A stretch of DNA of 64,000 bases, from contig JAZUCK010000023.1 of assembly GCA_045639065.1 (NCBI GenBank), positions 30,429-94,428 on the forward strand. Reading direction: 5' to 3'. The position numbers and the translations under genes were made by a program. Source of the stretch: Alphaproteobacteria bacterium (GTDB lineage Bacteria; Pseudomonadota; Alphaproteobacteria; RF32; CAG-239). The notes below the pieces were generated by a model. It was not told the DNA's origin, made no database searches, and was given only the letters and a program-made list of their open reading frames with translations. Position 1 is the first letter of the stretch. The number at the start of each line of letters is the position of its first letter. Positions 1,435-53,558 of this stretch are shown one piece after another.

Positions 1435-2262
1435 ATGTCTATTACATTAACCGCTAGTATGCGTTCAAATCTTTCGTCATTAAAAGTAATTCAATCTCAA
1501 ATGGATAAAACACAAGAGCGTCTTTCTACAGGTAAGAAAGTAAACTCTGCTATTGATAATGCTTCTTCTTACTATCAAGCCCGCTCTTTAACAAACCGTG
1601 CCGCTGATTTAGATTCCTTGTTAGATAGCATGGGTCAAGGTGTTCAAACAATTCAGGCCGCCAACGAAGGTATCGAAGCTATTACTGCTTTCGTAGAACA
1701 AATGAAATCAGTAGCTGAATCAGCAGCTGCACTTGATCCTGATGCTGAGGGATATGATGACAAAGTTGCCGGATATGCCGCACAATTTGATGCAATTAAA
1801 GAACAAATTGCAGATATTGCAAAAGATTCTTCATATCAAGGTGTAAACTTGTTGATTGGTAACAGCCTAAAGGTTGTATTTAACGAAACACGTACAAACG
1901 ATCTTACTGTTACAGGTAAAAATATCGTTAATGAAATGGCTATAACAGCAGCTGCCGGCGATGCAGGTTGGAAAACAGGAGTCGAAAAAATTACTGCATC
2001 AATTGGTGAAATTACAACAGCTGTAGAAACATTGCGTTCATTTGCAACAGAACTCGGTAATAACTTTACCATTATTGAAACACGTCAAAACTTTACCGAA
2101 GCTATGATTGATGTGTTAGAAACCGGTTCGGATAAGCTTGTACTTGCCGATATGAACGAAGAATCAGCTAACTACTTGGCATTGCAAACACGTCAACAAT
2201 TGGCTATTAATTCTTTGTCATTAGCTTCTCAATCTGCACAATCAGTATTGAGCTTGTTCTAA
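1435..2262 (+). CDS. flagellin, short alphaproteobacterial type with essentially no outer domain
   Basis: 275 aa. N-terminus is ITLTASMRSNL...GKKVNSAIDNASSYYQARSL and C-terminus is QTRQQLAINSLSLASQSAQSVLSLF. A GGGAGAAAAG RBS precedes the ATG. Confidence 0.92.
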   Translation: MSITLTASMRSNLSSLKVIQSQMDKTQERLSTGKKVNSAIDNASSYYQARSLTNRAADLDSLLDSMGQGVQTIQAANEGIEAITAFVEQMKSVAESAAALDPDAEGYDDKVAGYAAQFDAIKEQIADIAKDSSYQGVNLLIGNSLKVVFNETRTNDLTVTGKNIVNEMAITAAAGDAGWKTGVEKITASIGEITTAVETLRSFATELGNNFTIIETRQNFTEAMIDVLETGSDKLVLADMNEESANYLALQTRQQLAINSLSLASQSAQSVLSLF

Positions 2263-4856: not shown

Positions 4857-5336
4857 TTATTCTATTACCAACAAAGATTCGCCATATTCGACAGGATCAC
4901 CCGATTCAACCAAAATTTTGGTAACAGTTCCTGTGCGATGAGCCTTAACCGGATTAAATGTCTTCATGGCTTCAATAAGGCATACGATATCGCCTTCTTT
5001 TACCGTGTCGCCAATACCTACATAATCGGGTTTTGTCGGATCAGGAGATAAATATACAACACCTACTATCGGAGATTTAACTGTTCCTGCGTTATTTGAA
5101 TAGCCGTCAGCACTATAGGTTTCTTCTTTAGAAACATTTGCAGGAACAACTCCTGAAGATTGTGTTACGGGTTGAGCAACAGTTTGAACAGCTACCGGAG
5201 CCACAGCATTGGTGCAAACGAGGCCTTTTAATTTTATGCGGCAACTTTCGTCTTCATATTCAAGTTCGCTTAAATTATTTTTATTTAACACATCGGCCAG
5301 TTTACCGATAATTTTGGTGTCAATAGCATTTGCCAT
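4857..5336 (-). CDS. accB: biotin carboxyl carrier protein
   Basis: 159 aa. C-terminal biotinyl domain with an EAMK motif (LIEAMKTFNPV). Lies immediately upstream of accC. Confidence 0.9.
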   Translation of the reverse strand: MANAIDTKIIGKLADVLNKNNLSELEYEDESCRIKLKGLVCTNAVAPVAVQTVAQPVTQSSGVVPANVSKEETYSADGYSNNAGTVKSPIVGVVYLSPDPTKPDYVGIGDTVKEGDIVCLIEAMKTFNPVKAHRTGTVTKILVESGDPVEYGESLLVIE

Positions 5337-5554: not shown

Positions 5555-5593
5555 ATACTGTTTCTCAGGTTTATTTTTTTGAGGATTTACCCA

Positions 5594-7129: not shown

Positions 7130-7151
7130 CAGGTAATGGGGAGATAGTGTC

Positions 7152-7928
7152 ATGACAGATTTAAGCTCAATTATCACATCAGTAAATTCAGGTGTTTCTA
7201 AAGGAACAAATTCTGCTCAAACTTTGTCTGCCGATATGGATACATTTTTAACATTATTGACGACACAGTTGCAATATCAAGATCCTTTGGATCCGATGGA
7301 CGCATCTGAATACACTAACCAACTTGTTCAGTACTCTAATGTGGAACAAGCAATCCAAACTAACTCAAAATTGGATAATTTGCTTAATTTATCAATTTAT
7401 AATTTGGGTGTTCAAGCGACAAGTTATGTTGGCAAAACAATTCAAGCCATTAGCGATATGATGCCATTAGATAAAGGCGTGGCTAAAGCTACTTACACTT
7501 TGAGCAAAGGTGTAACAGATTGCACAATCGTATTAAAAGATATGGATGATAAGGTCGTTTATACTGCAAAAGGTGAAACATCTTCAGGTGCTCATGATTT
7601 TCTATGGGATGGTAAAAATATAAACGGCGAACAACTACCGGATGGAGCATACAAAATCGAAGTATTGACGACAGTTCCTGAAGGTGAAGCATCAGCTTCG
7701 GTAACAACAACCGTATTTGGACGTGTAACAGGTGTTGCCAGTGATGATAGCGGAATTTATTTAGGTTTGGGTGATGCTTTAACTACCACACTTGATTATG
7801 TGGTAACATCACGCAACGAAGATTATTGGGATAAATTAATTGCCGAAATTCAGAAGAATAACGGCTCTTCATCAGAAGATGAAGGAATAAAAGAAGAATT
7901 AGAACAAATAATAGCGCAAATTGCGTAA
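7152..7928 (+). CDS. flgD: flagellar hook assembly/capping protein FlgD
   Basis: N-terminal FLTLLTTQLQYQDPLDPMD motif, a FlgD Ig-like middle part (HDFLWDGKNINGEQLPDGAYK), and position upstream of flgE. Confidence 0.88.
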   Translation: MTDLSSIITSVNSGVSKGTNSAQTLSADMDTFLTLLTTQLQYQDPLDPMDASEYTNQLVQYSNVEQAIQTNSKLDNLLNLSIYNLGVQATSYVGKTIQAISDMMPLDKGVAKATYTLSKGVTDCTIVLKDMDDKVVYTAKGETSSGAHDFLWDGKNINGEQLPDGAYKIEVLTTVPEGEASASVTTTVFGRVTGVASDDSGIYLGLGDALTTTLDYVVTSRNEDYWDKLIAEIQKNNGSSSEDEGIKEELEQIIAQIA

Positions 7929-7952
7929 GTAAAAAGTTTTAGGAGAAATAAA

Positions 7953-10097
7953 ATGAGTATTTTAGGAGCATTACAAGCCGGTGTATCAGGCCTCGGAGCG
8001 CAGTCAAGCGCAATGGGAGCTATTGCCGACAACATAGCCAATATGAATACTATTGGTTATAAAAATAACAATGTATCTTTTTCAACTTTGGTAACTAAAC
8101 AGGTGTCATCAAGCAAATATTCTGCAGGCGGTGTACAATCACACACATCACAAAGCATTGATACACAAGGTTTATTATCATCTGTTTCATCAACAACCTC
8201 ATTAGCTGTGAGCGGTAACGGATATTTCGTAGTGAATTCGCACAATATTGGTGATGGTACATGGGCATATACCCGTGCCGGTGATTTCTTGAAAGATGAA
8301 ACAGGATATTTGGTAAATTCCGGAGGATATTATGCACAAGCATGGTCTTTGATGCCTTGGGATGGTACTGAATCTGCAGCAACAGTTGAAATTAACGGCA
8401 TTATTTATATGAAAGCATATAAAAATGAAAATGGCGAAACTGTATACATCAATGACAATATTGTTGATGAAAACAATCTTCGCGGTATTAACCTTTCAAA
8501 CATCGGCGGAACAGCAACACCGACAACTCAAATTGCTTTTGGTGCTAACTTGCCTTCATCAAGCCGTATTGGCGAAACTCATTCTGTTTCTACCTTAATT
8601 TATGATAGCCTTGGTAATCCGAATAACATCAGTTTGAACTATACCAAAGAAACAGCAAACTCTTGGGGCTTGAAGACTTCTATTCCTTCAGGAGCTGCTG
8701 CTATCAACCTTTACACAACTGATGGTTTGGTTTATTCATCAATCGGACAAATGGAATTTACCGACATTCCTGCTGAGGGTTCTACAATTAAAATTAACGA
8801 TACCGTTTTTGAATTTGTTAATGACAAGAATCTTGAAAATGGCAGTGCAATCGGCAACGGTAATAATAATATTGCCGTCAATATTGCCGAAGCTAATTCG
8901 GTAAAAGATGCTATTGACAGATTTTTGGAAGCAATAGAGCTCAATGTCAGAGATGCCGGACGTTTTACAAGAGATAATAATGCTATTAAAATCCAGCAAT
9001 CACTAACAGGTAATGCCTTACAAATTGATTGTAGCGGAACATTGGCTTGTGTTCAGTCGGCTGCCGATATTGATCAATCATCAGGATTATCTCAAGGTAT
9101 CTTTACCGTAGAAGCTGTTGACAATCAAATCAAAAATTGCGCATATGTCGATTTTTCATCTATCACTCAAGGTCAAAGCATAACTATTGATGGTGTGGAA
9201 TTTGTATTTGATAATGTTCAAAATGCAGATACTCCGACCAAGATATATGTTGGTTATTCCGCAGATTATTCAATGGCACAATATGTTGATATGCTTACCA
9301 GAAAGATTCAAGATTCTAATGTGGCCGAGCCTGAAAGATTTGTTGCCAGCGGAAAAACCTTGCAAATTATTCCGACATCAACAGGCGAAGATATTACTGT
9401 AAATTATACGATAACAGCTGACTTTGCTCAGATTGCCGGTGGCGATCCTGAAAATGTAATTCCTGCCACAATAACAAATAAATTTACTTATGATGATGTT
9501 GAGCAATTAGGAAGCAAAATTCCGGCCATTATGTTCAATTCTGATGGTACACCAAAGAACATAAATGTTGAAAATATGGAAATATATTGGGCAAACGGAG
9601 CTCAAGATATGACCGGTGAAGTAAAATTGGGCGATGGTGTACAAATCAAAATTAACATGGGTGAAGAAAACGTATCAACAGGTTTGACAAATCTTTCCGG
9701 AGGTTTTTCAACAAGCTACATCAACCAAGATGGGGCAACATTTGGTAGCTACGCCGGTGTAACTGTCGGAGAAGATGGTGTTGTAACCGCAGTCTTCTCA
9801 AATGGTGAAACTCGTCCTATCGCAATTATACCTTTGGCAACTTTTGTAAATGCCAATGGTATGGAAGCTCTTAACAATAACGTTTGGATTGCAACAACCG
9901 AGTCCGGAAATCCTTTGTTGACACAAGCAACTACAGGTGGCGCCGGTGAAATAGTATCATCTTCATTGGAAAGCTCAACAGTTGATTTGGCAACCGAATT
10001 TTCAAATATGATTGTTGTACAAAGAGCTTATTCGGCAGCAGGAAAGATTATGACAACTGCTGATGAAATGTTACAAGAATTAACCAATCTTGTATAA
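7953..10097 (+). CDS. flgE: flagellar hook protein FlgE (large, 714 aa)
   Basis: N-terminal rod/hook motif AIADNIANMNTIGYK. C-terminal VDLATEFSNMIVVQRAYSAAGKIMTTADEMLQEL. Has a long central insert. Confidence 0.92.
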   Translation: MSILGALQAGVSGLGAQSSAMGAIADNIANMNTIGYKNNNVSFSTLVTKQVSSSKYSAGGVQSHTSQSIDTQGLLSSVSSTTSLAVSGNGYFVVNSHNIGDGTWAYTRAGDFLKDETGYLVNSGGYYAQAWSLMPWDGTESAATVEINGIIYMKAYKNENGETVYINDNIVDENNLRGINLSNIGGTATPTTQIAFGANLPSSSRIGETHSVSTLIYDSLGNPNNISLNYTKETANSWGLKTSIPSGAAAINLYTTDGLVYSSIGQMEFTDIPAEGSTIKINDTVFEFVNDKNLENGSAIGNGNNNIAVNIAEANSVKDAIDRFLEAIELNVRDAGRFTRDNNAIKIQQSLTGNALQIDCSGTLACVQSAADIDQSSGLSQGIFTVEAVDNQIKNCAYVDFSSITQGQSITIDGVEFVFDNVQNADTPTKIYVGYSADYSMAQYVDMLTRKIQDSNVAEPERFVASGKTLQIIPTSTGEDITVNYTITADFAQIAGGDPENVIPATITNKFTYDDVEQLGSKIPAIMFNSDGTPKNINVENMEIYWANGAQDMTGEVKLGDGVQIKINMGEENVSTGLTNLSGGFSTSYINQDGATFGSYAGVTVGEDGVVTAVFSNGETRPIAIIPLATFVNANGMEALNNNVWIATTESGNPLLTQATTGGAGEIVSSSLESSTVDLATEFSNMIVVQRAYSAAGKIMTTADEMLQELTNLV

Positions 10098-21902: not shown

Positions 21903-22080
21903 AGCTTAGTAAAATAATCAGAAACCGTTTAGCCGTATAAGTACATTCTTGAAACGAACCGCGGGTCAATAAGTGGGTGCCATATAAACAGACCACGATC
22001 TGCTCAGCGACAGCTCCCTATAAAATAATGTTGGCTCGGAAGACCTGCTAAATTACGTACTACGCAGTCTCTGATGCACT
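21903..22080 (-). ncRNA. ssrS: candidate 6S RNA (ssrS)
   Basis: About 180-nt non-coding gap directly downstream of zapA on the same strand, which is the conserved ssrS position in proteobacteria. By eye the 5' arm (GCGTAGTA..TAAT..CAG..CCG..AGCC..ACATT) pairs colinearly with the 3' arm, giving an interrupted rod. It ends at a terminator. No covariance model was run. Confidence 0.5.
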
Positions 22081-32983: not shown

Positions 32984-33050
32984 TTTTTTGCTGAATAAAA
33001 TTTTAATATAACTCTTGCAATAATTAACCGATATGTCTATTCTCTAATAG

Positions 33051-33432
33051 AGACAGTCGGACAGTTGCGCTATGGCTTGACTATAGTGAGGAAAGTCCGG
33101 GCATCAAGGGAACAAGATACCGGATAACGTCCGGCTGGGGAGACCCAAGGGAAAGTGCCACAGAGATATACCGCCAAGCTATATGTTTGGTAAGGCTGAA
33201 AAGGCGAGGTAAGAGCTCACCGCGGTGGTGGTAACACTACCGGTCCAGGTAAACCCTATCTGATGCAAGACCAAGTTAGGAGCTTCAAGGTGTTGCTTTT
33301 GCAACAAACCGGATGATATGGGGCGTTCTCTACCCACTCCAGAGGTAGGTCGCGATGAGCTGTTTAGCAATAATCAGCCAAGATGAATAACTGTCGCCTT
33401 TTAAGGTACAGAACCCGGCTTATAGGCTGTCT
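33051..33432 (+). ncRNA. rnpB: RNase P RNA, bacterial type A
   Basis: Universal motifs GAGGAAAGTCCGGGC (33089 onward) and ACAGAACCCGGCTTA (33408 onward). The 5' AGACAGTC pairs with the 3' GGCTGTCT to form P1. Confidence 0.93.
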
Positions 33433-33471
33433 TATTTTTTTTTATTTATGATTTTTTTACAAGGGCTGATA

Positions 33472-40379: not shown

Positions 40380-40964
40380 ATGCAAGCAAACAAATATATC
40401 GGTGATGAAGCTTTTATAAAAATGTTGGAACATTATTCTTGTCCGACACCCCTAAACGTAATAAAAATGCGTTTTGCCGGAGCTATTTGCTCACCAAATA
40501 TGAACTTACGTCCGACAGATGTAATTTCATCATTTTGGGAAGAGGGACGCACACCTCGCTTAGAAACTAAGAAAGAAGCCGATTTGTTCTTTAAGTTTTT
40601 TATGGGCTTGTGGGACGAAATTTTTGAAGATGTGAAAAAAATCGGGGTAAAACTTCCGTCTTCAAAAGAAAAAGATATTCAAATTTATTGCCAAAATCGC
40701 TTCGAAGAAATTGAACAAGGATTTGTTGAGGGCTTCTTCGGCGGACAAGAAAACTTAAAAATGGCCGGATATTTGGCACAAATTGTCGATTCTTTATCCG
40801 AAATGGCAACTCTATATACCAAGATAGCGCTAAAAGGCGAAGCAACTCAAGCTACTTGGGATGCAGTTAAGCACACCGACAAAGTTGTCGAACGCTCGAT
40901 TGCTTTCATTATCGAAAATTCGGTAATGCCACGTATTGAAGACATTAAACGCAGTGTAAACTAA
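40380..40964 (+). CDS. hypothetical protein
   Basis: 194-aa ORF with no competing frame. Family not recognised. Confidence 0.5.
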   Translation: MQANKYIGDEAFIKMLEHYSCPTPLNVIKMRFAGAICSPNMNLRPTDVISSFWEEGRTPRLETKKEADLFFKFFMGLWDEIFEDVKKIGVKLPSSKEKDIQIYCQNRFEEIEQGFVEGFFGGQENLKMAGYLAQIVDSLSEMATLYTKIALKGEATQATWDAVKHTDKVVERSIAFIIENSVMPRIEDIKRSVN

Positions 40965-41620
40965 GCCAAAACACAAGAATACAGCACGGCAAAAAAGTGC
41001 ATAACCGTACCGCTAAGGACAAAGAAATGCCAAATAGCGTGGGTATATTTTTTTGACTTTTGAATATAAAACAGAACACCAAAGGTATAAAATAATCCGC
41101 CTAAAACGAGGAATATTAAACCCAGTGAGGGAATAGCGCTGACCAAAGATTTTGATGCAAAAACAATCAGCCATCCCATAATCAGATAAAGCGATATTGA
41201 CCAAATTTTAGTGCCGCTTCCCGAGGTTACGAGTTTTAATATCGTTCCCAAAATTGCCAATCCCCATATAATACCGAATATTACCCAACCGGTAACACCT
41301 CGAAGTGAAACCAACAAAAACGGAGTATAAGAGCCGGCAATCAGATAATATATGGATATGTGGTCAAACTTTTTTAATTTCTTTTTGATTTTTTCATCTC
41401 TAAAGGCGTGATAAAGAGTAGATGCGGTGTATAAAACAACCATACTTGCGCCAAAAATAGCCGTGGAAACAATCGCCCACACATCAGCATAAAGCGAAGC
41501 AAAAACTACCAACAATACAAGTCCGGTAATACTCAAACCGATACCTATACCGTGAATTATGGAGCTCCACATTTCTTCTTTTGATGAGTAGGTCCTTACA
41601 TTTGACATAACACCCTCCAA
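40961..41620 (-). CDS. hemolysin III / PAQR-family membrane protein
   Basis: Seven hydrophobic segments. Contains HAFRDEKIKK, DHISIYYLIAGSYTPF and HAIWHFFVL. Confidence 0.85.
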   Translation of the reverse strand: MEGVMSNVRTYSSKEEMWSSIIHGIGIGLSITGLVLLVVFASLYADVWAIVSTAIFGASMVVLYTASTLYHAFRDEKIKKKLKKFDHISIYYLIAGSYTPFLLVSLRGVTGWVIFGIIWGLAILGTILKLVTSGSGTKIWSISLYLIMGWLIVFASKSLVSAIPSLGLIFLVLGGLFYTFGVLFYIQKSKKYTHAIWHFFVLSGTVMHFFAVLYSCVLA

Positions 41621-41758: not shown

Positions 41759-43054
41759 ATGTTTGATATTCAATTTTATAAGATGGCGATGCTAAAAATA
41801 GATTTGCAAGATTTGTTTTTTGCATATTTTAACTGTCGCAAAAACAAAAGGCGCACGGTAAATGCACTTGATTTTGAATTAGACTTCGAAACCAAGCTTA
41901 TCAAATTATATAATGATATAAAAAAACGCAAATACGAAATAGGCAAATCAATAGCATTTATAGTATTTGAGCCGGTAAAGCGAGAAGTTTTTGCTGCTAA
42001 TTTTCGAGACAGAATAGTTCATCATTATATTATAGATAAAATAAACAAATATTTTGAAAAAGATTTTATAGACGACAGTTATAGTTGCCGAGAGGGTAAA
42101 GGTACCTTATACGGAGTAACACGCATATACGAATATATGCGTGAATGTTCGCAAAATTATACAAAAGATTGTCATATACTAAAGTTGGACATTCGTTCAT
42201 TTTTTATGAACATTGATAAAAATATATTATTCAAAAGCCTTAAAAAATTTTTGGACAGTAAGTATAAAAATCCTGACAAAGACACAATTTTATACCTGAT
42301 AAAAAAGGTAATTTTCAACAATCCCGAAGACAATTGTATAATAAAAGGCAAACTATCAGATTGGAACGGTTTGCCTTATTACAAAAGCTTGTTTTGGTCG
42401 AACAAAAACAACGGATTGCCCATAGGAAATCTGACCTCGCAGGTTTTTGCCAATTTTTATTTAAACTCTTTAGATAAATACATTACAAAAGATTTGGGTA
42501 TAAAATATTATGGTCGCTACGTTGATGATTTTGTAATTATCCACGAGGATAAGGAATACTTAAAGAAGGTACATATAAAAATAGCAAATTTTTTAAGACG
42601 AGAGCTAAAACTTACACTTCATCCGCAAAAAGTATATCTTCAACACTATAGCAAAGGGGTAAAATTTATTGGTGCCATAATCAAGCCCAATCGAATATAT
42701 ATCGGCAACAGGACCAAAAACGGATTGTATAATAAGATTGGCTCAAAGCTTGAGATAATGTCACAAGATTTGCCAATAGCACTCAAAGAGATTGCAAATT
42801 TTGAAGCAAGTATAAATTCATATTTTGGATTTATGCGTCATTATAACAGCTATAATTTGCGCCGTCATACCATAGAAAAACTGCAAGAAACATTTGTAGG
42901 CGATATGATGGAAGACAAAAAAGAATATAACAAGATTTCTATAGATAAGCTATTTCGTCCCTTAGAGCAAAAAAAATATCAACTGCGTCATCAACGACAA
43001 TATCGAAGGTGGCAATATAATTCAAAAAGGAGTAATAAAAATGGCAATATATAA
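41759..43054 (+). CDS. DGR-type reverse transcriptase
   Basis: 431 aa. Contains the DGR-clade signature LPIGNLTSQVFANFYLN (I/LGxxxSQ) and the catalytic YGRYVDDFVI (YxDD). No maturase/endonuclease extension. Adjacent to avd and the TR. Confidence 0.92.
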   Translation: MFDIQFYKMAMLKIDLQDLFFAYFNCRKNKRRTVNALDFELDFETKLIKLYNDIKKRKYEIGKSIAFIVFEPVKREVFAANFRDRIVHHYIIDKINKYFEKDFIDDSYSCREGKGTLYGVTRIYEYMRECSQNYTKDCHILKLDIRSFFMNIDKNILFKSLKKFLDSKYKNPDKDTILYLIKKVIFNNPEDNCIIKGKLSDWNGLPYYKSLFWSNKNNGLPIGNLTSQVFANFYLNSLDKYITKDLGIKYYGRYVDDFVIIHEDKEYLKKVHIKIANFLRRELKLTLHPQKVYLQHYSKGVKFIGAIIKPNRIYIGNRTKNGLYNKIGSKLEIMSQDLPIALKEIANFEASINSYFGFMRHYNSYNLRRHTIEKLQETFVGDMMEDKKEYNKISIDKLFRPLEQKKYQLRHQRQYRRWQYNSKRSNKNGNI

Positions 43055-43394
43055 TCAACTGCCGATATATAAGGATTCGTATCAGCTTTTGCTTGAGATA
43101 TATCAAGTTACATCAAAATTCTCTAGAGAACACAAATATAATCTAGGTCAAGATATGAGGCGAGATGCATTAGCAATGATGCGACATTTATATGGAGCAA
43201 ATATAAATATTGAGCACAGGCAAGAATATATCGACAGATTTTTAAATATGTTTGAAATGTTAAAGGTCGAAATAAGGTTATGTGTTGATATGAACATAAT
43301 GAGTATAAATCGCCTTGCGCATATCAGTTTGATAATGGATTCGATAGCCAAGCAAGCGAGGGCATGGAGAGCAAGGAGCGGTCAAAAACAATAA
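43041..43394 (+). CDS. avd: DGR accessory variability determinant (Avd-like four-helix-bundle protein)
   Basis: 117 aa, basic and helical. The N-terminus LPIYKDSYQLLLEIYQVTSKFSREHKYNLGQDMRRDA is typical of the four-helix-bundle / 23S rRNA intervening-sequence protein family. Overlaps the RT stop by 14 nt. Confidence 0.85.
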   Translation: MAIYNQLPIYKDSYQLLLEIYQVTSKFSREHKYNLGQDMRRDALAMMRHLYGANINIEHRQEYIDRFLNMFEMLKVEIRLCVDMNIMSINRLAHISLIMDSIAKQARAWRARSGQKQ

Positions 43395-43410: not shown

Positions 43411-43522
43411 AAGCCGAAACGCACGGGCGTTGTTGTTGTTATTCTTATTGTTGTTGTTCCGATTGCCATCGGATGTATTTAGTTTCCATGAGTTATTTGA
43501 ATTGTACTCAGAGGAGGACCAA
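43411..43522 (-). repeat. DGR template repeat (TR), with its sense strand on the minus strand
   Basis: The reverse complement is colinear with 45316-45430. Its conceptual translation is Asn-rich: WSSSEYNSNNSWKLNTSDGNRNNNNKNNNNNARAFRL, made of AAC/AAT codons. All 17 substitutions relative to the VR are at TR adenines. Confidence 0.93.
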
Positions 43523-43719
43523 ACCTGACAATATTTTTGTTATCGTTTAAATTTTGAACGACATCTATTAAATCAGATGCTGTAGATAACCCTTTTTTAA
43601 TTAAAAAAAGCTCACTCCTAACGACACGAAATCGATAGAATTCCGGCAGAATATCCAACCGCTCCGGTTAAATATGCTAGTGTTTAAAATTTTTTATGTC
43701 AATAAGGTAAATCAAAACC

Positions 43720-43858
43720 GTCATCCCCCTGAGCGAATGCAATGAGCGAGGTAAGGCATCTTCCTTGTTTTATTTAATTTGAAGATCGCTAACCGCACTC
43801 CGCTAAAGCTTCGTTTAGGCGATGACTCATTATGTCATTCCTCATTCAAGGCGTTGAC
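43720..43858. repeat. palindromic repeat units upstream of the giant flagellin (same family as 46351-47090)
   Basis: The unit at 43720-43765, GTCAT-CCCC..TGAGCGA..GAGCGAG..AGGC-ATCTTC, is an inverted copy of the downstream B unit. The unit at 43781-43826 is GAAGAT-CGCT..AGGCG-ATGAC. A partial unit lies at 43834-43858. Confidence 0.75.
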
Positions 43859-43984
43859 AGAAAAATAATTTTTTTTATATTATTAAGGAAATATTTACAA
43901 ATTTTATGTACAAGCTATAGTATATAAGTGTGTCTTAATATAAGCGCACAATGTAAGAAATACAACCAAAATAGGAAAGAAACA

Positions 43985-46330
43985 ATGGCGAATAGCACCA
44001 TAACATTGACAGCCTCGATGCGTTCGAATCTGATGTCGCTAAAAAATATAGCCACACAAATGAGCAAGACACAAAATATCCTTTCGACCGGCAAAAAGGT
44101 AAATTCAGCCATTGACAATGCTTCCAGTTATTATCAAGCCCGAAGCCTAAGCAATCGTGCGGCAGACCTAAATGCTTTGTTAGATACAATGGGACAAGGT
44201 ATCCAAACCTTGCAAGCCGCTAATGAAGGAATTGAGGCGGCAACATCATATTTGGAGCAAGCCAAAGCAGTAATAGAACAAGCGTCATCAACCGGCGCGA
44301 CCCCTCTGACTTCACAAGTACAATTAACCGACAATGTCGAAGAGCTGTTGGCACAAGGCTATATAGCTATTGATTCGAGTATGACGGGCGAAGATATTAT
44401 GAATTTAATTGCCGAATTAGATGCCGACGGCGAAGAAATAAATCTTGTTTTAACCGAAGATATAGAAATAGATGATTATTTTGAGTTTTATGAAGCAGAT
44501 GTAACCATCAACGGTGCTGGTCATACATTAAAATTGACAAATGAGTGGGGACAACTTTATCTTGGTGGTGAAAATACAACAATAGAAAATATGACTATAG
44601 AGCACACCGGAAATAGTGATAGAGTAATTTATAGCGAAACAACAGGATTGACATTAAGAAATGTCAATATAAATCATGAATATACCGGCAACTATAGCGC
44701 ACAAACAGTATATATGGAATGTGGCGGAACAGTAGAGAATGTAAACATTAATACCAAAGCCGAATCAGTTTTAGCAGGAGTTTTAAGTTATTCCGGCGAT
44801 TTAGATATCAAAAACTTAACTATGGACTTGAGTATTGAGAAAAAAGGCTCGGTAACCGGAGTTTATGCCGGAGCCGGATATGATGGCACCGAAGGTGGCA
44901 ATGTAACGGTTGACGGCATGAGCATCAATGCTCATGGCGAGAACATCAAAGGACTTTGGGCAGCCGGCGAAGTAACAGGCTTAGAAGGTGTTTATAGCGG
45001 AAATTCGAGCATTCCACAATCATTGACCAACGGCAAAGCCAACACCCAAGCGATAGTTGCACAACTAGGTTCAGACGCCAAAGCAGCCTATGCCACAACC
45101 CAATTTTACGTTGGTGATAAGAATGGTGAGTTTGGACAGGGAAAATGGTATTTACCTTCCATTGCGGAGCTAATGGACCTTTATGGAACAGATTATGATG
45201 GTATCAATGGCGGATATGGCATAAGTGGAGCCAATGGCGACAACCTAAGCGCTATCAATACCACCCTCGGCGAATTGGCAGATGACGGTATCGCGGAGGA
45301 AATGGATGGGTGGTATTGGTCCTCCTCTGAGTTCCTTTCAAATTACTCATGGCTACTACTTACATCCGATGGCAGTCGGAACTACTCCAATAAGCATACT
45401 AACGGCTACAGCGCCCGTGCGTTTCGGCTTGTAGAAAATTGCTTTAACCCTTCACTTCTTTCCGGCGCCGAAGGCGACGGCATTCCCAAAGTGGGTGATA
45501 TAATGTATTTAGATAAGTCATGGGGCACATTAGAAGACTATGACTCATCAAAAGCCGATCAAGTAGCCGGCGTCATCTGTGGCGTGGGTGATGATGGTTC
45601 AGTAAGGGTTGTATCATTAAAAGATTTGACTTTCAGTTCATTAGATGACGCCGGAATTTTTAATCCGGACGATCCATACGGCGGAAGTACCAAATATGTC
45701 AGATGGGCAACCTATGATAACGGTAAGTGGGAAGAAAATATCGAAGCTATTACCGACGTAGATGATGCCGCGTTAGCGGCCGCGTTTAATCAGCTTAAAG
45801 GTATTAGTGTCGAAGCAATCAATAATGCTTTTACAAAAGTTGATGTAGATACATATAAAGAACAGTTCAATGACGTTATAAGCCAATATGATGATCTAAT
45901 TAAAGATGCTTCATATCAAGGTGTAAATCTACTTACCGGTGGTGAACTAAATGTTGTCTTTAATGAAACTCGCACGCACAGTTTTAATGTCAAAGGCGAG
46001 GATATTCGCTCGGATAAGTTAGGCTTAAAAACTGTAAGCTGGAATAATGCCGGCGAATTGGAAGTTACTGTCGAATCATTAAAAAATGCTATCAATAAAT
46101 TACGCTCGGTGGCAACTGATTTAGGTAATAAATATACTATTATCCAAACTCGTCAAAACTTTACCGAGGCTTTAACAGATGTATTAGAAACCGGCGCTGA
46201 TGATTTAGTATTAGCCGATATGAATGAGACATCAGCCGAATATCTGATGTTGCAAACAAGACAACAATTGGCAATCAATTCTTTATCTCTTGCTTCGCAA
46301 TCAGCCAGCTCAATCTTGAGTTTGTTTTAA
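43985..46330 (+). CDS. giant flagellin (781 aa) with a central beta-helix-like plus DUF1566/C-type-lectin-fold-like insert; the DGR target
   Basis: The N-terminal roughly 110 aa and C-terminal roughly 160 aa are colinear with, and highly similar to, the flagellin at 1435-2262 (ITLTASMRSNL..GKKVNSAIDNASSYYQARSL; QTRQQLAINSLSLASQSASSILSLF). The ATG at 43985 with an AGGAAAG RBS is preferred over 43928. The insert has repeats (IENMTIE, LRNVNIN, VENVNIN, IKNLTMD, VDGMSIN) followed by GKWYLPSIAELMDLYG...WYWSSSEF...YSARAFRLV. Confidence 0.9.
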   Translation: MANSTITLTASMRSNLMSLKNIATQMSKTQNILSTGKKVNSAIDNASSYYQARSLSNRAADLNALLDTMGQGIQTLQAANEGIEAATSYLEQAKAVIEQASSTGATPLTSQVQLTDNVEELLAQGYIAIDSSMTGEDIMNLIAELDADGEEINLVLTEDIEIDDYFEFYEADVTINGAGHTLKLTNEWGQLYLGGENTTIENMTIEHTGNSDRVIYSETTGLTLRNVNINHEYTGNYSAQTVYMECGGTVENVNINTKAESVLAGVLSYSGDLDIKNLTMDLSIEKKGSVTGVYAGAGYDGTEGGNVTVDGMSINAHGENIKGLWAAGEVTGLEGVYSGNSSIPQSLTNGKANTQAIVAQLGSDAKAAYATTQFYVGDKNGEFGQGKWYLPSIAELMDLYGTDYDGINGGYGISGANGDNLSAINTTLGELADDGIAEEMDGWYWSSSEFLSNYSWLLLTSDGSRNYSNKHTNGYSARAFRLVENCFNPSLLSGAEGDGIPKVGDIMYLDKSWGTLEDYDSSKADQVAGVICGVGDDGSVRVVSLKDLTFSSLDDAGIFNPDDPYGGSTKYVRWATYDNGKWEENIEAITDVDDAALAAAFNQLKGISVEAINNAFTKVDVDTYKEQFNDVISQYDDLIKDASYQGVNLLTGGELNVVFNETRTHSFNVKGEDIRSDKLGLKTVSWNNAGELEVTVESLKNAINKLRSVATDLGNKYTIIQTRQNFTEALTDVLETGADDLVLADMNETSAEYLMLQTRQQLAINSLSLASQSASSILSLF
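45316..45430 (+). repeat. DGR variable repeat (VR) inside the flagellin insert
   Basis: 115 nt matching the reverse complement of 43411-43522. There are 17 substitutions and one extra codon. Encodes WSSSEFLSNYSWLLLTSDGSRNYSNKHTNGYSARAFRL. The variable codons span about aa 450-476 of 781. Confidence 0.93.
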
Positions 46331-46350
46331 GTAAAAATAAAAAACAAACA

Positions 46351-47090
46351 GTCATCCCACCAAATCGACAGATTTGGTCAAGGGATCTTCAACTTTAAAA
46401 AAAGAAGAAGATGCCTAGTTTCGCTCGTCCCTCGCTCAAGGCATGACAGTTTAAATAACAATAATTAAAAGTCATCCCTCCAAATCGACAGATTTGGTCA
46501 AGGGATCTTCAACTTTTTAAAAAATTAAAAGAAGAAGATGCCTAGTCTCGCTCGTCCCTCGCTCAAGGCATGACATTATTTGATAAAAAACAAGAACCGC
46601 GACTTTTATATATTTTAAACGGGTCCGGGCGTGTGCAGAAACTTCTTATGCTTTACGTCAAAAGTGTTTGATTAAGGTAATGGATTTAAGGTGCAATGGA
46701 TATGGAAGCGTATTTTGGCGTGAAGCATTAGAAATCGAACCAGCCCGGCAATTTTTGGTTACTTTTTGTTGGCAAAAAGTAACGTAAGAAAAAAGAAGAA
46801 GATGCCTAGTCTCGCTCGTCCCTCGCTCAAGGCATGACAGTTTAAATAACAATAATTAAAAGTCATCCCTCGTTTTCGATAAGAAAACGTCAAGGGATCT
46901 TCAACTTTAAAAAAAGAAGAAGATGCCTAATCTCGCTCGTACCTCGCTCAAGGCATGACAGTTTAAATAACAATAATTAACAGTCATCCCTCGTTTTCGA
47001 TAAGAAAACGTCAAGGGATCTTCAACTTTGTAAAAAATTAAAAGAAGAAGATTGCTTGACCTCGTCGCTATACTCTTCTTAAGCGATGAC
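46351..47090. repeat. array of roughly 120-bp composite palindromic repeats (alternating A and B units) downstream of the flagellin
   Basis: A units (GTCATCCCxC-hairpin-TCAAGGGATCTTC) lie at 46351-46390, 46471-46510, 46862-46902 and 46983-47023. B units (GAAGAAGATGCCT..CTCGCTCGTCCCTCGCTCA-AGGCATGAC) lie at 46404-46447, 46531-46574, 46795-46838 and 46916-46959, with a degenerate copy at 47044-47090. A unique 220-bp segment interrupts the array at 46575-46794. Confidence 0.85.
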
Positions 47091-49661: not shown

Positions 49662-49755
49662 ATTGTGTTTCAAAAAAAAATAGACAAAAAATAATTGACC
49701 AAACCCTTAAAATATGATATTTTGTCTAAAATTTATCTTCAGGAGATTTTTTTTG

Positions 49756-51009
49756 ATGAATATTAGAGAATATATCAATCATATGAAAAGTGTTCGAGGT
49801 GACAGAAGTTTTGCCTTTCTTGCCGAGAGATGTGAAACATCTGAAAAAAATCCTTTTCGTATTCGTCCTGCAGAACCGATAAAAGCTGATGAGGTTCTTG
49901 TATGTGTGCTTTGTGGCGCAAACAGAAACGAAGGTGATTATATTCGTGAGTATAACGGATATTTAAAAAAAGTTGATGACTTTGTTAAAAAATCACCCAA
50001 ATTAAAAGGGTATAATATAAGAGTTTGTGTCGCTGTATGTAATTTTGGCAAGTATCATGACACTGATAGAGCTCGTTATCTGCAGCATTTGAAGCAATTC
50101 GATTATAAAAAATATAAAGAGATGATATCAAAATTACCGCCTGAGGTTAAAGAAGAAACATTAAATCCTTGCTATATTCAAGACATTTTTAATACAACCA
50201 TGCTTCCTCGTATTTCAGAAAATAAAAGTGAAACGATGCACAATATTCGTCGCCTCAATTTTGTTACTCATTGTCATGGTGCTTACGAAGTTGTAGAGAT
50301 GGAAGGCAAAATGTCTGAAAAATTATCTCTTCTGGGATATACAGCAAGTGACAAAGAGCAAATTTTTGCCCAACAGATGAGCTTAAATTTTAATCCTGAG
50401 GGGGCAAAAAATCATGCAAAATCACGTTTTTTCAATATTCAATCAGCTGCTGATTCGCATAATCATCAAACAACACCTTTGGAAGAATATTTGCTTATTA
50501 AGCCGAGTGATTTCGGAATTGCTTATATCAACAACAAAAATATTAAGACGTTGATGTGTGCTCAGGTTGATAAAAGAGGCGTCGAAGGTAATCCTCCGCC
50601 GGTATATATTGCAAGACCTGTTGAAGATCTTTTTAGGGATACAATGGAAGTAATGTCCGATAAAAATAATGATGAAACTAGAGAGCCCGAGGAAGAGGAT
50701 TATGTTTCTGAGCATTCATTTATGGGCTTTAGTCCAAAATCAAATATGAGCCGTGGTGCAAAAAAAATACAAAAAATTGCCGGAAATATACTGGAAAATT
50801 CTTTGCTTAATTCAGTCAGGCAAAAGAAGGATGAGTTTGTGCCTTTGCCATCTTTCTTAACTTTGGCAGCCGGTGATAGAACCGAGCGCTTTGAAATTGC
50901 CAAAGCTTATATAAAAGGTTGGAAAATGGTCGGCAAAACAATGATTGAAGATCCTTCCAAACTTGCTGCACATAATGCCTATCGTCGAAGACACACCATA
51001 GAACTATAA
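49756..51009 (+). CDS. hypothetical protein (orphan, 417 aa)
   Basis: Long ORF. AGGAG RBS sits 10 nt upstream of the ATG at 49756. No family recognised. Confidence 0.6.
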   Translation: MNIREYINHMKSVRGDRSFAFLAERCETSEKNPFRIRPAEPIKADEVLVCVLCGANRNEGDYIREYNGYLKKVDDFVKKSPKLKGYNIRVCVAVCNFGKYHDTDRARYLQHLKQFDYKKYKEMISKLPPEVKEETLNPCYIQDIFNTTMLPRISENKSETMHNIRRLNFVTHCHGAYEVVEMEGKMSEKLSLLGYTASDKEQIFAQQMSLNFNPEGAKNHAKSRFFNIQSAADSHNHQTTPLEEYLLIKPSDFGIAYINNKNIKTLMCAQVDKRGVEGNPPPVYIARPVEDLFRDTMEVMSDKNNDETREPEEEDYVSEHSFMGFSPKSNMSRGAKKIQKIAGNILENSLLNSVRQKKDEFVPLPSFLTLAAGDRTERFEIAKAYIKGWKMVGKTMIEDPSKLAAHNAYRRRHTIEL

Positions 51010-51218: not shown

Positions 51219-51290
51219 ATCATTAAATGCTTGTTTTTTTGTCTAAAAGATGTTACAATAAGGTAAATTGTATATTTGGGAGATAAAAAA

Positions 51291-53558
51291 ATGGCAAGAG
51301 GTGCTAGAACAAAAAGTCTTCATAAAATAAGAATGTCCCGTGACGAAAGTAGAAGAAATGATCGAATAAAAGAAGCTAACATTTATTCTTTTTTCGATAT
51401 TTGGAATTGGTTTTATGAAGGTGAAGAAGGAGAAGAGGGCAAATCCATACATGACTTCAAAACACTTATAAGTGAAGAAGTTAAGGCGATTGATGCGGCT
51501 CATTACCCGGAAGACGGTTCAAATCAGCACCAGCACACTTATGAGCACCAGCCTCCTCAGAAAAGCAAAAAACAAAATAAGAGAACTCCCGCTAAAAAAC
51601 AAAGAACAAAAGTCAATAAACTTGCTTCCAATTTTTTTGCGGCAGAGGATGATTTTATTCAGAATCATGCTGCCAAATATTATGAATATCTTATGGAGAA
51701 GTCTAATATCGAAGATATTAATGATGAAAAAGAGCGCACAAAAAAGTTAGAAGATCTTAAAACTAAATATAAAGGATCTATAAGTGCTCTTGAAAAATGT
51801 CAAGAATTAGGCGCTGATTTTGAAAAATATGAGCAAACAATCAAGTTCTTAAATGAAATTCCCGAAAGTGTTCTGCTCAATATGGTTCAATATAACTTAG
51901 AGTGTGAAAAAAGAGGAAAGAAAAATCTTATTGATAAGCCCTTTGAAGAAATGTTTTCGCAACCGCATTATAAATCTACCGGTAAAGAAAGCGAAAATGG
52001 CTCAATTATAAATGAACATAGATTTAATATCGGTACCGATAATGATTCCGTTACTCATTCAATTTTAAATCTCAATGGAACAGGTTTAAATATCACATTT
52101 ATCGACGGAAAAGTTTCATTACTGTTTTGTGATGATAATATGACACAAGATCAAATTGATGCTTTGGCCGATTATTGTTTCAGATATGGTATAAAAATTG
52201 AAGACTTTGGAAACTTAAAAGGATCTAAAGTAGTTGATAATGACAATAAAGAAGTTGGAGATATAGAGGCTGTATTTGCCAAATCTACTAAAAAGGCTAT
52301 AGATAAGATTGCTCAAAATGCGGTAGATCAGGGAATAGTACCTGTTGACGATACAACCAAAGAAGTTCACATAGATCCCAGCGAAAATTTCTTTGGTGAA
52401 TTTATTCCTGAGGCTAAAGCTCTTAAACCTTTCCAGCCTAACAAAGCCATAGATGCCGCTAAAAAACTTACGGCCGGAGGTGGTGTCGTTGTTCCCAGCT
52501 GCTATTTTGGCACAACAGTCGTAAGATTCTATAGTAATGAAGATGACGTAAAAAAAGATTGCCGTATGAGTAAGGATGGAGAGGAGCTGATACATACTAA
52601 AAAATATGCCGTTACATTCAATCACTCAAGAGGTGAGGCACTTTTCTACTTAGGTAAGAAAACACAACTTTCAACAGGTGATATTCGCGTTGGTTTAGAA
52701 GCCTTAAAAGCGCAGGGATATAAGTATTTTGAATATCCGTCTATTACCAGTGACGAAGGCTTTGGTGCCGGGACACAGAAGGCTATGTTTGAGGCTTCGG
52801 TAAAAACAGGTATGCCTCTGTTATTGCGAGGCCCAAGCGGTCGAGGCTGTGATATTGGAGCTGCCGATATTGATACCATACTTGAATTTACCAACAAGAA
52901 TGATAACTTTACCGGAAAGCACGCCGAAAAAGCCGAGTATTTGATGCGTTGGTACGAGCAACTCCAAAAATATGTGGCAACAACTAATAAGCATGGCGAA
53001 TTTGCTACGGTTATGGATAAAGTAAAACAACAAGCAAGCTTTACATTGTTCCAAGCCTCGTTTAAAGGATTGATTGAAGATGAAATCAAGAAAAATATAG
53101 GTGATGACGGAAAATGGGATAATGTCGATGTTATGTCTGCATTATATGCCTACGGTAAAATAGTAGACGGTATTAAAAACGGTTACTTAGGCGGAAAACG
53201 CTATAATCCTTTGGATGAAAAGAATAATGGCGACCTTATAATGAAAGAGTTTACTCGCCTGAGACAAGCTCGTCGTCCTATTATCGAAAAAGAAATATCT
53301 GATAACTTATCTAATCTTGCGAATAGTTCTAGTAACGATAAACCTGAAAAAGTTATGAACACAATGTTGCGTAACTATAAAGGCGCTTTGGGTAAACTGG
53401 TTGGTGATCTTAAAGGATTGGGTGTTGATGTCGGATTAGGCGATTTTGATTGCAGAAGATTATACAATCCGGAGTTGAAAAAACAAACAACTTCAAATGA
53501 AACAAATAATGTTGTCACACCTGCATATAAAAAATATGCTGAGCAAGTAAGACCTTAG
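51291..53558 (+). CDS. hypothetical protein (orphan, 755 aa)
   Basis: Long ORF. GGGAG RBS sits 8 nt upstream of the ATG at 51291. Basic, low-complexity N-terminus. No family recognised. Confidence 0.6.
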   Translation: MARGARTKSLHKIRMSRDESRRNDRIKEANIYSFFDIWNWFYEGEEGEEGKSIHDFKTLISEEVKAIDAAHYPEDGSNQHQHTYEHQPPQKSKKQNKRTPAKKQRTKVNKLASNFFAAEDDFIQNHAAKYYEYLMEKSNIEDINDEKERTKKLEDLKTKYKGSISALEKCQELGADFEKYEQTIKFLNEIPESVLLNMVQYNLECEKRGKKNLIDKPFEEMFSQPHYKSTGKESENGSIINEHRFNIGTDNDSVTHSILNLNGTGLNITFIDGKVSLLFCDDNMTQDQIDALADYCFRYGIKIEDFGNLKGSKVVDNDNKEVGDIEAVFAKSTKKAIDKIAQNAVDQGIVPVDDTTKEVHIDPSENFFGEFIPEAKALKPFQPNKAIDAAKKLTAGGGVVVPSCYFGTTVVRFYSNEDDVKKDCRMSKDGEELIHTKKYAVTFNHSRGEALFYLGKKTQLSTGDIRVGLEALKAQGYKYFEYPSITSDEGFGAGTQKAMFEASVKTGMPLLLRGPSGRGCDIGAADIDTILEFTNKNDNFTGKHAEKAEYLMRWYEQLQKYVATTNKHGEFATVMDKVKQQASFTLFQASFKGLIEDEIKKNIGDDGKWDNVDVMSALYAYGKIVDGIKNGYLGGKRYNPLDEKNNGDLIMKEFTRLRQARRPIIEKEISDNLSNLANSSSNDKPEKVMNTMLRNYKGALGKLVGDLKGLGVDVGLGDFDCRRLYNPELKKQTTSNETNNVVTPAYKKYAEQVRP

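Follow-up and report, generated by a model that had tools for sequence, protein, structure and literature searches.

A giant alphaproteobacterial flagellin interrupted by a lectin-like module that carries a diversity-generating retroelement variable region

We analysed a 64,000-nucleotide stretch of DNA from an Alphaproteobacteria bacterium (GenBank assembly GCA_045639065.1, contig JAZUCK010000023.1, positions 30,429 to 94,428; hereafter the window), in which a gene for a giant flagellin lies beside a diversity-generating retroelement (DGR). The open reading frame (ORF) at 43985..46330 encodes a flagellin core of the Caulobacter FljK type that is interrupted by a module of ~510 residues, and residues 445-482 of the product are a true DGR variable region (VR). 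The overall explanation that we consider likely is a FljK-type flagellin bearing a cap, a beta-helix stalk and a permuted lectin head, which is diversified by the adjacent chromosomal DGR. Coordinates refer to the window, and features lie on its plus strand unless the minus strand is named.

The flagellin core and the site of the insert

The giant flagellin gene begins with the ATG at 43985 and its stop codon ends at 46330, giving 781 amino acids (aa) plus the stop. This start is supported by the homologues, which begin at an equivalent methionine. The initial annotation of the window had proposed flagellin-like termini, and the comparisons upheld this. The genome also encodes a short flagellin (275 aa, 1435..2262), a paralogue with D0/D1 only that matches Caulobacter FljM/FljK over its full length (E 4e-26). 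By tblastn, the giant flagellin was 75.5% identical to it at residues 5-102 and 57.3% identical at residues 624-781. Both Pfam flagellin domains scored above their cut-offs on the giant protein: Flagellin_N (PF00669) at residues 14-124 with 48.6 bits (cut-off 26.6) and Flagellin_C (PF00700) at residues 699-781 with 23.9 bits (cut-off 23). On the isolated residues 600-781, Flagellin_C reached 27.5 bits and matched 698-781. In addition, phmmer related the core to the solved FljK, FljL, FljM and FljN filaments with E 2e-17. The flagellin subfamily models of NCBIfam matched with E 1e-50 to 1e-53. The hook-associated protein FlgL was considered as an identity and rejected, as FlgL models gave E ~1e-4 against 1e-50 for the flagellin subfamily models.

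We modelled the giant flagellin with AlphaFold2 (AF2) from an alignment of 68 family members (predicted local distance difference test (pLDDT) 85.4; predicted template modelling (TM) score 0.70). The model comprises helices 10-34 and 46-102, the insert, helix 622-641, a hairpin at 654-670 (strands 654-658 and 666-670) and helix 689-780. The first two helices form the ND0 and ND1a portion (aa 1-104, 43985..44296), which is defined by the model, the FljK alignment and the identity to the short flagellin. The elements beyond the insert form the ND1b helix, the D1 beta-hairpin and CD1-CD0 (aa 621-781, 45845..46327), as defined by the model, the FljK alignment and the Flagellin_N and Flagellin_C profiles. 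Confidence was low in D0 (pLDDT <50 at residues 1-46), which is usual in monomer models. When the model was compared with the PDB by Foldseek, the top matches were Caulobacter flagellar filaments (E 2.6e-5, 30% identity). By AF2, Foldseek and phmmer, the D0/D1 helical layout agrees with that of solved filament subunits. The formal alignment thus recovered the conserved D0/D1 helices expected by the initial annotation, with residues 9-103 corresponding to FljK 7-101 and residues 605-781 to FljK 92-270. Across the family, the entropy of D0/D1 was 0.95-1.09 bits, compared with 1.9 bits in the beta-helix. The window also encodes FliK (5579-7129), which fits a flagellated organism.

We set the domain boundaries by the FljK alignment together with the Pfam profile coordinates. 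The helix names ND1a and ND1b are those established for Salmonella FliC; by BLASTP, Salmonella FliC was too distant from the giant flagellin to place the boundaries. In the short flagellin, Flagellin_N runs unbroken over residues 11-143 (profile positions 9-137) and Flagellin_C covers residues 191-275. In the giant flagellin, the tail of Flagellin_N (profile positions 87-136) aligns with residues 603-652 (E 0.066 when this segment was searched alone), and the insert therefore splits this domain. The ~510 aa lie between ND1a (model helix 46-102) and ND1b (helix 622-641). The canonical D2/D3 site, between the D1 beta-hairpin and CD1, is not used and holds only ~18 residues (671-688). The initial annotation had placed the insert in the flagellin hypervariable region; phmmer, the Pfam coordinates and the model place it instead in the ND1a/ND1b loop. 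Both window flagellins match the final 160 positions of PRK12688 (752 positions) and PRK14708 (888 positions). By these profile coordinates, the long alphaproteobacterial flagellins of both families appear to carry their inserts in this loop, too, and it seems to be the site usually used in the lineage.

The inserted module and its variable region

The insert opens with a small alpha/beta cap (aa 105-150, 44297..44434), for which the model gave helices 118-123 and 135-146, strand 127-129 and a pLDDT of ~87-96. It continues as a right-handed parallel beta-helix-like stalk (aa 151-330, 44435..44974). All five periodic motifs on which the initial annotation had based a beta-helix were at the expected places (IENMTIE at 200, LRNVNIN at 224, VENVNIN at 250, IKNLTMD at 275 and VDGMSIN at 309). 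In the model the stalk is all-beta, with 16 strands, a repeat of ~25 aa and a pLDDT of ~88-97. The Pfam family Pectate_lyase_5 (PF20585) matched it with E 5e-5, at 23.7-23.8 bits with a cut-off of 24.3. Foldseek returned pectin methylesterase (probability 0.97), NosD (1.00), tailspikes and alginate lyases, with TM-scores of only 0.16-0.41. Given the modelled strands and these matches, we regard a predicted right-handed beta-helix as well supported but not proven.

The stalk is followed by the helical half and VR strands of a DUF1566/Lcl_C C-type-lectin-like part (aa 345-483, 45017..45433), by a beta subdomain of the lectin module (aa 501-575, 45485..45709; pLDDT ~88-97) and by a helical segment that returns to D1 (aa 576-620, 45710..45844). 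The return segment has model helices at 578-583, 594-601 and 609-615 and no Pfam match. The DUF1566/Lcl-like segment recognised in the initial annotation was borne out, with its motifs starting at 386 (GKWYLPSIAELMDLYG), 442 (GWYWSSSEF) and 475 (YSARAFRLV). Lcl_C (PF07603) covers residues 366-478; its E-value was 1.5e-6 on the whole protein and 7e-8 on the segment alone (28.9-33.2 bits; cut-off 34.9). It was matched by all 14 family members tested, and the precomputed annotation of the giant protein lists PF07603. By hhalign, the lectin part matched canonical DUF1566 DGR targets at 99.7% (E 5e-26). By BLASTP, it matched the DGR target of locus L095 (E 1e-9), which itself passes the PF07603 cut-off (44.6 bits). 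The profile match to the C-terminal domain of Lcl (Lcl-CTD, PDB 8Q4E) was weak (E 0.0014). The VR aligns to Lcl-CTD 364-399, which includes the glycosaminoglycan-contacting residues K369, S371, K380, K385, S390 and K391 (PMC11162425). A DUF1566 DGR module thus sits on a flagellin scaffold, in keeping with the domain grafting first proposed. It looks as if it had been grafted from classical DGR targets.

The order of the subdomains differs from that of canonical proteins. Residues 498-574 match residues 89-165 of P0420, which lie N-terminal to its helical part (BLASTP E 3e-9), and residues 345-436 match P0420 193-300 (E 2e-8). By hhalign, the beta subdomain matched canonical N-terminal positions 77-102 (88-92%, E ~1e-6); pairwise BLASTP of this third module with the L095 target was not significant (E 0.2). 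The canonical order in P0420 is a signal peptide, a Cys-rich region, the beta subdomain, the helical part and a C-terminal VR-like end, and the L095 target likewise has beta before helix. The giant flagellin has the non-canonical order of helical part (345-436), VR (445-482) and beta part (498-574). Judged by this reversal relative to P0420 and L095, the lectin module is circularly permuted or, equivalently, excised from a tandem array in a shifted register. The initial annotation had described a third part of 150 aa of unknown fold. About half of it (498-574) proved to be the DUF1566 beta subdomain, and residues 576-620 are the helical return segment, which matched no Pfam family. The VR had also been held to be internal because its module is nested in a flagellin. 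The nesting is real but is not the sole cause: the module itself is permuted, and the VR is therefore internal even within it. Tandem arrays of the same permuted order occur in non-flagellin proteins, namely the L007 ORF and P0294. Both the L007 product (6459-8789 of that locus) and P0294 (1102 aa) are secreted and Cys-rich, with 2-3 tandem permuted modules (helical, VR-like, beta). Tandem proteins of the L007/P0294 type are a possible source of the flagellin insert.

An internal VR at aa 445-482 (38 codons, 45316..45430) had been proposed, and alignment to the template repeat (TR) confirmed it. The TR comprises 113 nt at 43411..43523 on the minus strand and is delimited by inverted-repeat arms and the VR alignment. 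All 17 substitutions between the two repeats fall at TR adenines. Since adenine makes up ~37% of the TR, the probability of this outcome by chance is ~4e-8. The VR is also one codon longer, through a 3-nt indel in an AAC tract; DGRs are documented to produce indels of one codon opposite such tracts (PMC5758913). The TR encodes WSSSEYNSNNSWKLNTSDGNRNNNNKNNNNNARAFRL and has 14 AAY codons. With 20 variable codons, ~1e21 proteins are possible. Two TR codons, AAA (457) and AAG (470), can mutate to stop. The scaffold residues W445, S446-448, E449, W456, G463, R465, K470, R478 and F480 are fixed. The last 18 nt of the VR (GCCCGTGCGTTTCGGCTT) are adenine-free and identical to the TR, resembling an initiation of mutagenic homing (IMH) site. 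We found no second VR for this TR in the 64-kb window.

A GC-rich DNA hairpin (45462..45480; dG -8.3 kcal/mol, z -2.2) starts ~30 nt past the VR. It falls in the part of the gene that encodes the Gly/Ala/Ser linker joining the VR to the permuted beta subdomain. Folding of seven DGR-linked flagellin VRs gave, in every case, a hairpin in the same register, with stem sequences that differ. Its offset of ~142-145 nt from the Trp codon equals that of the post-stop hairpins in canonical targets with a C-terminal VR (L091-L094). Most paralogues without an adjacent DGR are also without the post-VR hairpin. Because the VR is internal and the domain permuted, both the IMH and the hairpin must sit inside the coding sequence.

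The adjacent DGR and its relatives in gut Alphaproteobacteria

The DGR lies upstream of the giant flagellin gene. Its reverse transcriptase (RT; 431 aa, 41759..43054) matched Pfam RVT_1 with 69.1 bits and contains IGNLTSQ at residue 222 and YVDD at residue 254, which we take to be DGR signatures. The accessory protein Avd (117 aa, 43041..43394) matched Pfam bAvd with 49 bits (cut-off 40) and NCBIfam DivGenRetAVD with E 1.5e-11, below the cut-off of that model. The window RT was 55-63% identical to RTs beside flagellin VRs in other metagenome-assembled genomes (MAGs) and 41-63% identical across the RT scan as a whole. An adenine-biased TR/VR pair was found in 8 of the 11 scanned loci that hold a relative of the giant flagellin or of its insert.

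The arrangement of these parts is distinctive. In the window, RT and Avd on the plus strand are followed by the TR, inverted on the minus strand, and then by the VR-bearing flagellin on the plus strand; the initial annotation was silent on the strand of the TR. Related loci follow either TR>RT>Avd>flagellin (L021, L044, L053, L073 and L086) or flagellin< TR>RT>Avd (L008, L088, L090 and L128), and among the related loci compared RT>Avd>inverted TR was seen only in the window. At 462 nt, the distance between the TR and the start of the flagellin gene is similar to that in the divergent arrangement, and the simplest history is accordingly that the RT-Avd block was inverted.

Directly 5' of the TR, a structured RNA element of two nested helices (43539..43590, minus strand) was defined by conservation and covariation. 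It is kept in all eight flagellin-DGR loci compared (the window, L021, L044, L053, L073, L086, L088 and L090). Its 16 pairs are 96% paired, and 10 of them show compensatory changes. None of 500 shuffles reached the observed score, and slid controls paired in 24-54% of cells. The TR region with this element had no family match in Rfam. By analogy, the element may play the role of the spacer RNA of Bordetella phage BPP-1, on the other side of the TR. A candidate sigma-70-like promoter for the TR RNA lies upstream at 43674..43702 on the minus strand (TTGACA-17-TAGCAT, 10/12 consensus positions).

On this basis we propose the following mechanism. The TR RNA would be transcribed from the minus strand, carrying the conserved 5' stem-loop. 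RT and Avd would then copy it into cDNA with misincorporation opposite template adenines. The cDNA would replace the VR, steered by the adenine-free 3' homology and the downstream GC hairpin, and the Gly/Ala/Ser linker would be the place where the gene accommodates that hairpin. If the protein polymerises, each cell would show one variant in thousands of identical filament copies, and variants would differ between lineages. The likeliest role would be that of an adhesin that binds with high avidity and can change its specificity; evasion of antibodies or flagellotropic phages may be a second effect.

We then compared the giant flagellin with its relatives. In uncultured gut Alphaproteobacteria, the full-protein search found many flagellins of 650-813 aa that share this architecture. 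The family occurs commonly in gut metagenomes of humans and animals, but among the 120 relatives listed only 3 had source names ('hypothetical protein' for two and 'flagellin' for one). When species-representative genomes were scanned for the lectin module, 79 loci emerged: 51 complete flagellins, 10 flagellins truncated at contig ends and 18 loci that were non-flagellin or undetermined, including several that encode tandem-module proteins. An exhaustive search of 1.84 billion cluster representatives identified 192 that are related to the permuted module, 54 of them with an E-value of 1e-30 or lower, which indicates a restricted family. Homologous giant flagellins, for which the initial annotation had suggested a search, exist with and without a DGR: 61 of the 79 module loci are flagellins, and at least 9 other species pair a giant flagellin with a DGR. 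Adenine-biased TR/VR pairs, with 76-100% of mismatches at TR adenines, lie beside the flagellin in L008, L021, L044, L053, L073, L086, L088 and L090. In L012, RT and Avd stand at the contig end and the VR fits the L086 TR, with 16 of 21 mismatches at adenines. A TR, an RT and a flagellin are also present in L089 and L128, where no VR pairing was recovered. RTs of 55-61% identity serve ordinary short DUF1566 targets in related bacteria (L091-L095), and by sequence relationship these targets are a plausible source of the grafted module.

The VR is hypervariable in related natural populations. In five clusters at ≥90% identity, the differences concentrate in the VR at fixed positions, with constant scaffold residues and one-codon indels. 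In 68 family members, VR codons opposite TR adenines had an entropy of 3.07 bits, and adenine-free ones had 1.02 bits. Many cluster members are broken into separate ORFs, with the end precisely within the VR. The TR of the L021 species (4878-4996) has TGA at the conserved Trp codon, and the natural alleles have Trp, Cys or a stop; in the L021-type cluster P0016, many database entries are halves of 454 aa and 328 aa. Read from these entries, the pattern would amount to DGR-driven on/off variation of a flagellin. In another species, the ORF breaks right after the Trp, where the TR has AAA. The flagellin VRs of L088 and L128 have a stop or frameshift in the reading frame, and the L088 TR has TAA at codon 450. 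As their reading frames suggest, these are further DGR-linked null alleles.

Some MAGs hold many lectin-module loci: 12 in CALXTO bin33, 8-9 in CAKQMD, CAKQNT and CAKQRQ, and 6 in CALXUM. The loci of the multi-copy MAGs (L023-L081 in CALXTO bin33; CAKQMD, CAKQNT, CAKQRQ) are mostly giant flagellins, most of them without the post-VR hairpin, and no RT was found within the fetched flanks. The L073 TR fits VRs in other MAGs (L010, L015, L056 and L079), with 80-90% of mismatches at adenines, which suggests additional or trans targets.

Several observations concern the surroundings of the cassette. A phage origin was considered and rejected, since the cassette stands among the housekeeping genes gltX, argS, gap and pgk and its neighbours, an MQANK protein and HlyIII, are also found in L021. 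In the window, a 194-aa 'MQANKYIGDEAF' protein and HlyIII lie side by side upstream of the cassette (40380-41620). In L021 the same two genes flank the DGR-flagellin cassette (4059-4643 and 9348-10001). This difference indicates that the cassette moved or that the region was rearranged. Just past the giant flagellin stop, 46332-47060 holds four ~120-nt repeat units with the core GAAGATGCCTAGTCTCGCTCGTCCCTCGCTCAAGGCATGAC at 46407, 46534, 46798 and 46919. This area also has a second hairpin-containing unit, and degenerate inverted copies lie upstream of the gene at 43725-43860. No other occurrence of the core was found in the 64-kb window. The repeats look like repetitive extragenic palindromic (REP) elements or miniature inverted-repeat transposable elements (MITEs) and could be linked to the local rearrangement of the cassette. 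Elsewhere, the window encodes class A RNase P RNA (33049-33438; 280 bits) and 6S RNA (21918-22073, minus strand; 56 bits). Downstream of gap and pgk, the ORFs 49714-51009 (431 aa) and 51276-53558 (760 aa) had no Pfam match at E <= 0.001.

Alternatives, significance and comparison with known systems

Several points weigh against the explanation that we favour. The Lcl_C and Pectate_lyase_5 scores both fall just under the Pfam gathering cut-offs. An AF2 model of the lectin and post-VR segment alone (14 sequences) reached a pLDDT of 51 and was left out of the fold search. The ND1a/ND1b loop is not the classical outer-domain site. The window TR is on the opposite strand to RT-Avd; in all 11 related loci that retain a TR, it lies just upstream of the RT on the same strand. 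By analogy with BPP-1, an RNA element 3' of the TR, if required here too, may have been lost in the window. Finally, the cluster of the window species has a size of 1, a single sequence, and an exact-match search of Joint Genome Institute (JGI) metagenome contigs for the 3' flank of the VR found none. Given this single sequence and the lack of a JGI match, we infer ongoing diversification in the window genome from its relatives.

We weighed four other explanations against this background. It is hardly credible that the giant ORF arose by chimeric assembly or represents a fused pseudogene. The source is probably a metagenome-assembled contig, and many related entries have split ORFs. However, 51 complete loci from many separate assemblies share the architecture, as do 68 aligned full-length proteins, the single-chain model is confident, and the split ORFs break inside the VR at stop-capable codons, as DGR mutagenesis predicts. 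It is improbable, to a much lesser degree, that the giant protein is not a filament subunit, its D0/D1 termini serving only to direct export through the flagellar type III apparatus and the product being released or tip-located as a soluble or minor adhesin. The insert does interrupt D1 itself, as the split Flagellin_N shows, and could impair polymerisation; moreover, the ordinary 275-aa flagellin could build the filament, and D0 was modelled at low confidence, though this is usual for monomers. Yet a mere tag would not need the whole of D1 (ND1b, hairpin and CD1), and the D0/D1 core is strongly conserved, both in entropy and in its 57-75% identity to the short flagellin. The PRK12688/PRK14708 flagellins appear to have inserts at the same site, and in MAGs with 8-12 such paralogues all cores are complete. 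Under the explanation that we favour, the giant flagellin would enter the filament and expose the VR on its surface.

It is likewise unlikely, if a little less so, that the window DGR is a recent fossil in which the inversion of RT-Avd uncoupled template from enzyme and froze the VR. The order found only in the window and the end of homology to other loci right after the T-run beyond the TR speak for such a loss. Against it, the RT, Avd and flagellin ORFs are intact, the TR and VR differ by substitutions at adenines only, with no other drift, and the covarying 5' TR element is retained with a promoter-like site upstream of it. In addition, the BPP-1 TR RNA functions when supplied in trans. The DGR of the window genome may still be active. 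A different view accepts the diversification and holds that it serves escape and not binding, as antigenic variation against secretory immunoglobulin A or flagellotropic phages, with a lectin fold that merely tolerates DGR mutagenesis. This is the least unlikely of the four alternatives, though still rather doubtful to us. Surface domains of flagellins are antigens and phage receptors under diversifying selection (PMC7018530), and DGR nonsense alleles such as the L021 TGA are common in related populations, like on/off phase variation. On the other hand, the variable positions correspond to the surface by which the homologous Lcl domain contacts its ligand, every C-type-lectin DGR target characterised so far is a binding protein (PMC5758913), and a ~180-residue beta-helix stalk that bears a lectin head looks like an adhesin design. 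Ligand binding by the VR is the function that we would expect, and escape and binding are not mutually exclusive.

The flagellin bearing a lectin head diversified by the neighbouring DGR also allows a broader proposal, which we put forward tentatively as a fair way short of likely. The filament would be a polyvalent display scaffold for a hypermutable lectin, stop-capable TR codons would give on/off switching, and arrays of up to ~12 paralogues with differing frozen VRs would act as a 'germline', so that an antibody-like two-tier system would operate on the motility organelle.

Most DGR targets described to date are tail fibres of phages, lipoproteins or proteins anchored to pili or to the cell surface, and their VR is C-terminal. 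If our explanation is true, a flagellin target would place programmed hypervariation on a structure of ~20,000 identical subunits (PMC7643111) and so provide very high avidity. Motility would be coupled with changeable adhesion or with immune or phage evasion in the gut, and, if the flagellin assembles, the flagellum may show a hypervariable binding site in thousands of copies. A permuted lectin fold, together with a flexible linker whose coding sequence conceals the DNA hairpin that is required, would make a DGR workable on an internal VR. The finding bears on the open question of how flagellin surface-domain diversity originates (PMC7018530), for which it would offer one concrete mechanism, and it suggests a natural design for polyvalent display libraries. 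In a full-text literature search, 'flagellin' appeared once only, in a list of DGR target annotations (PMC6642488), and no account was found of a DGR-diversified flagellin, a permuted lectin module or a 5' TR element.

Among known DGRs, that of Legionella pneumophila with its target LdtA is similar in several respects. LdtA is a CLec2/DUF1566 protein (PMC5758913) and shares the W-S-S-x-E...W...G...K VR scaffold in a DUF1566/C-type-lectin-like domain. That system likewise has an AAC-rich TR, an RT with Avd and a surface-displayed target, display being what we would expect of the giant flagellin. Unlike the giant flagellin, with its permuted domain and internal VR, LdtA is a lipoprotein whose VR forms the extreme C-terminus. 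DUF1566 targets form the CLec2 class, in which a single DGR had an internal VR (Wu et al. 2018, PMC5758913). The DGR of phage BPP-1 (Mtd, Avd, TR and Brt) shares adenine-specific mutagenic retrohoming, Avd, a GC-rich 3' homology and a post-VR hairpin with the window (PMC5758913). It is phage-borne, however, with the order target-avd-TR-RT and an essential spacer RNA 3' of the TR, whereas the window DGR is chromosomal, has a structured element 5' of the TR and carries a TR inverted relative to the RT. Lcl-CTD (PDB 8Q4E; PMC11162425) is the sole solved DUF1566 structure that was matched, weakly as noted above, and the stretch of it that aligns to the VR carries the glycosaminoglycan-binding residues. 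In contrast to the giant flagellin module, Lcl is trimeric on a collagen stalk, undiversified and of canonical beta-then-helix order.

On the flagellin side, the nearest solved relatives of both window cores are the Caulobacter crescentus FljJ-O filaments (PDB 6XKY, 8UXJ), and there, too, several flagellin paralogues occur per genome. Those flagellins are ~273 aa long and consist of D0/D1 only, without an outer domain. In flagellinolysins and in the giant flagellins known from marine gammaproteobacteria, the insert lies at the canonical D2/D3 position. Like the giant flagellin, both groups combine a conserved D0/D1 core with a large folded domain on display. Their inserts are described as part of the flagellin hypervariable region (PMC7643111). 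These inserts are enzymes or of unknown function and are not hypermutated, whereas the insert of the giant flagellin is a DGR target in the ND1a/ND1b loop.

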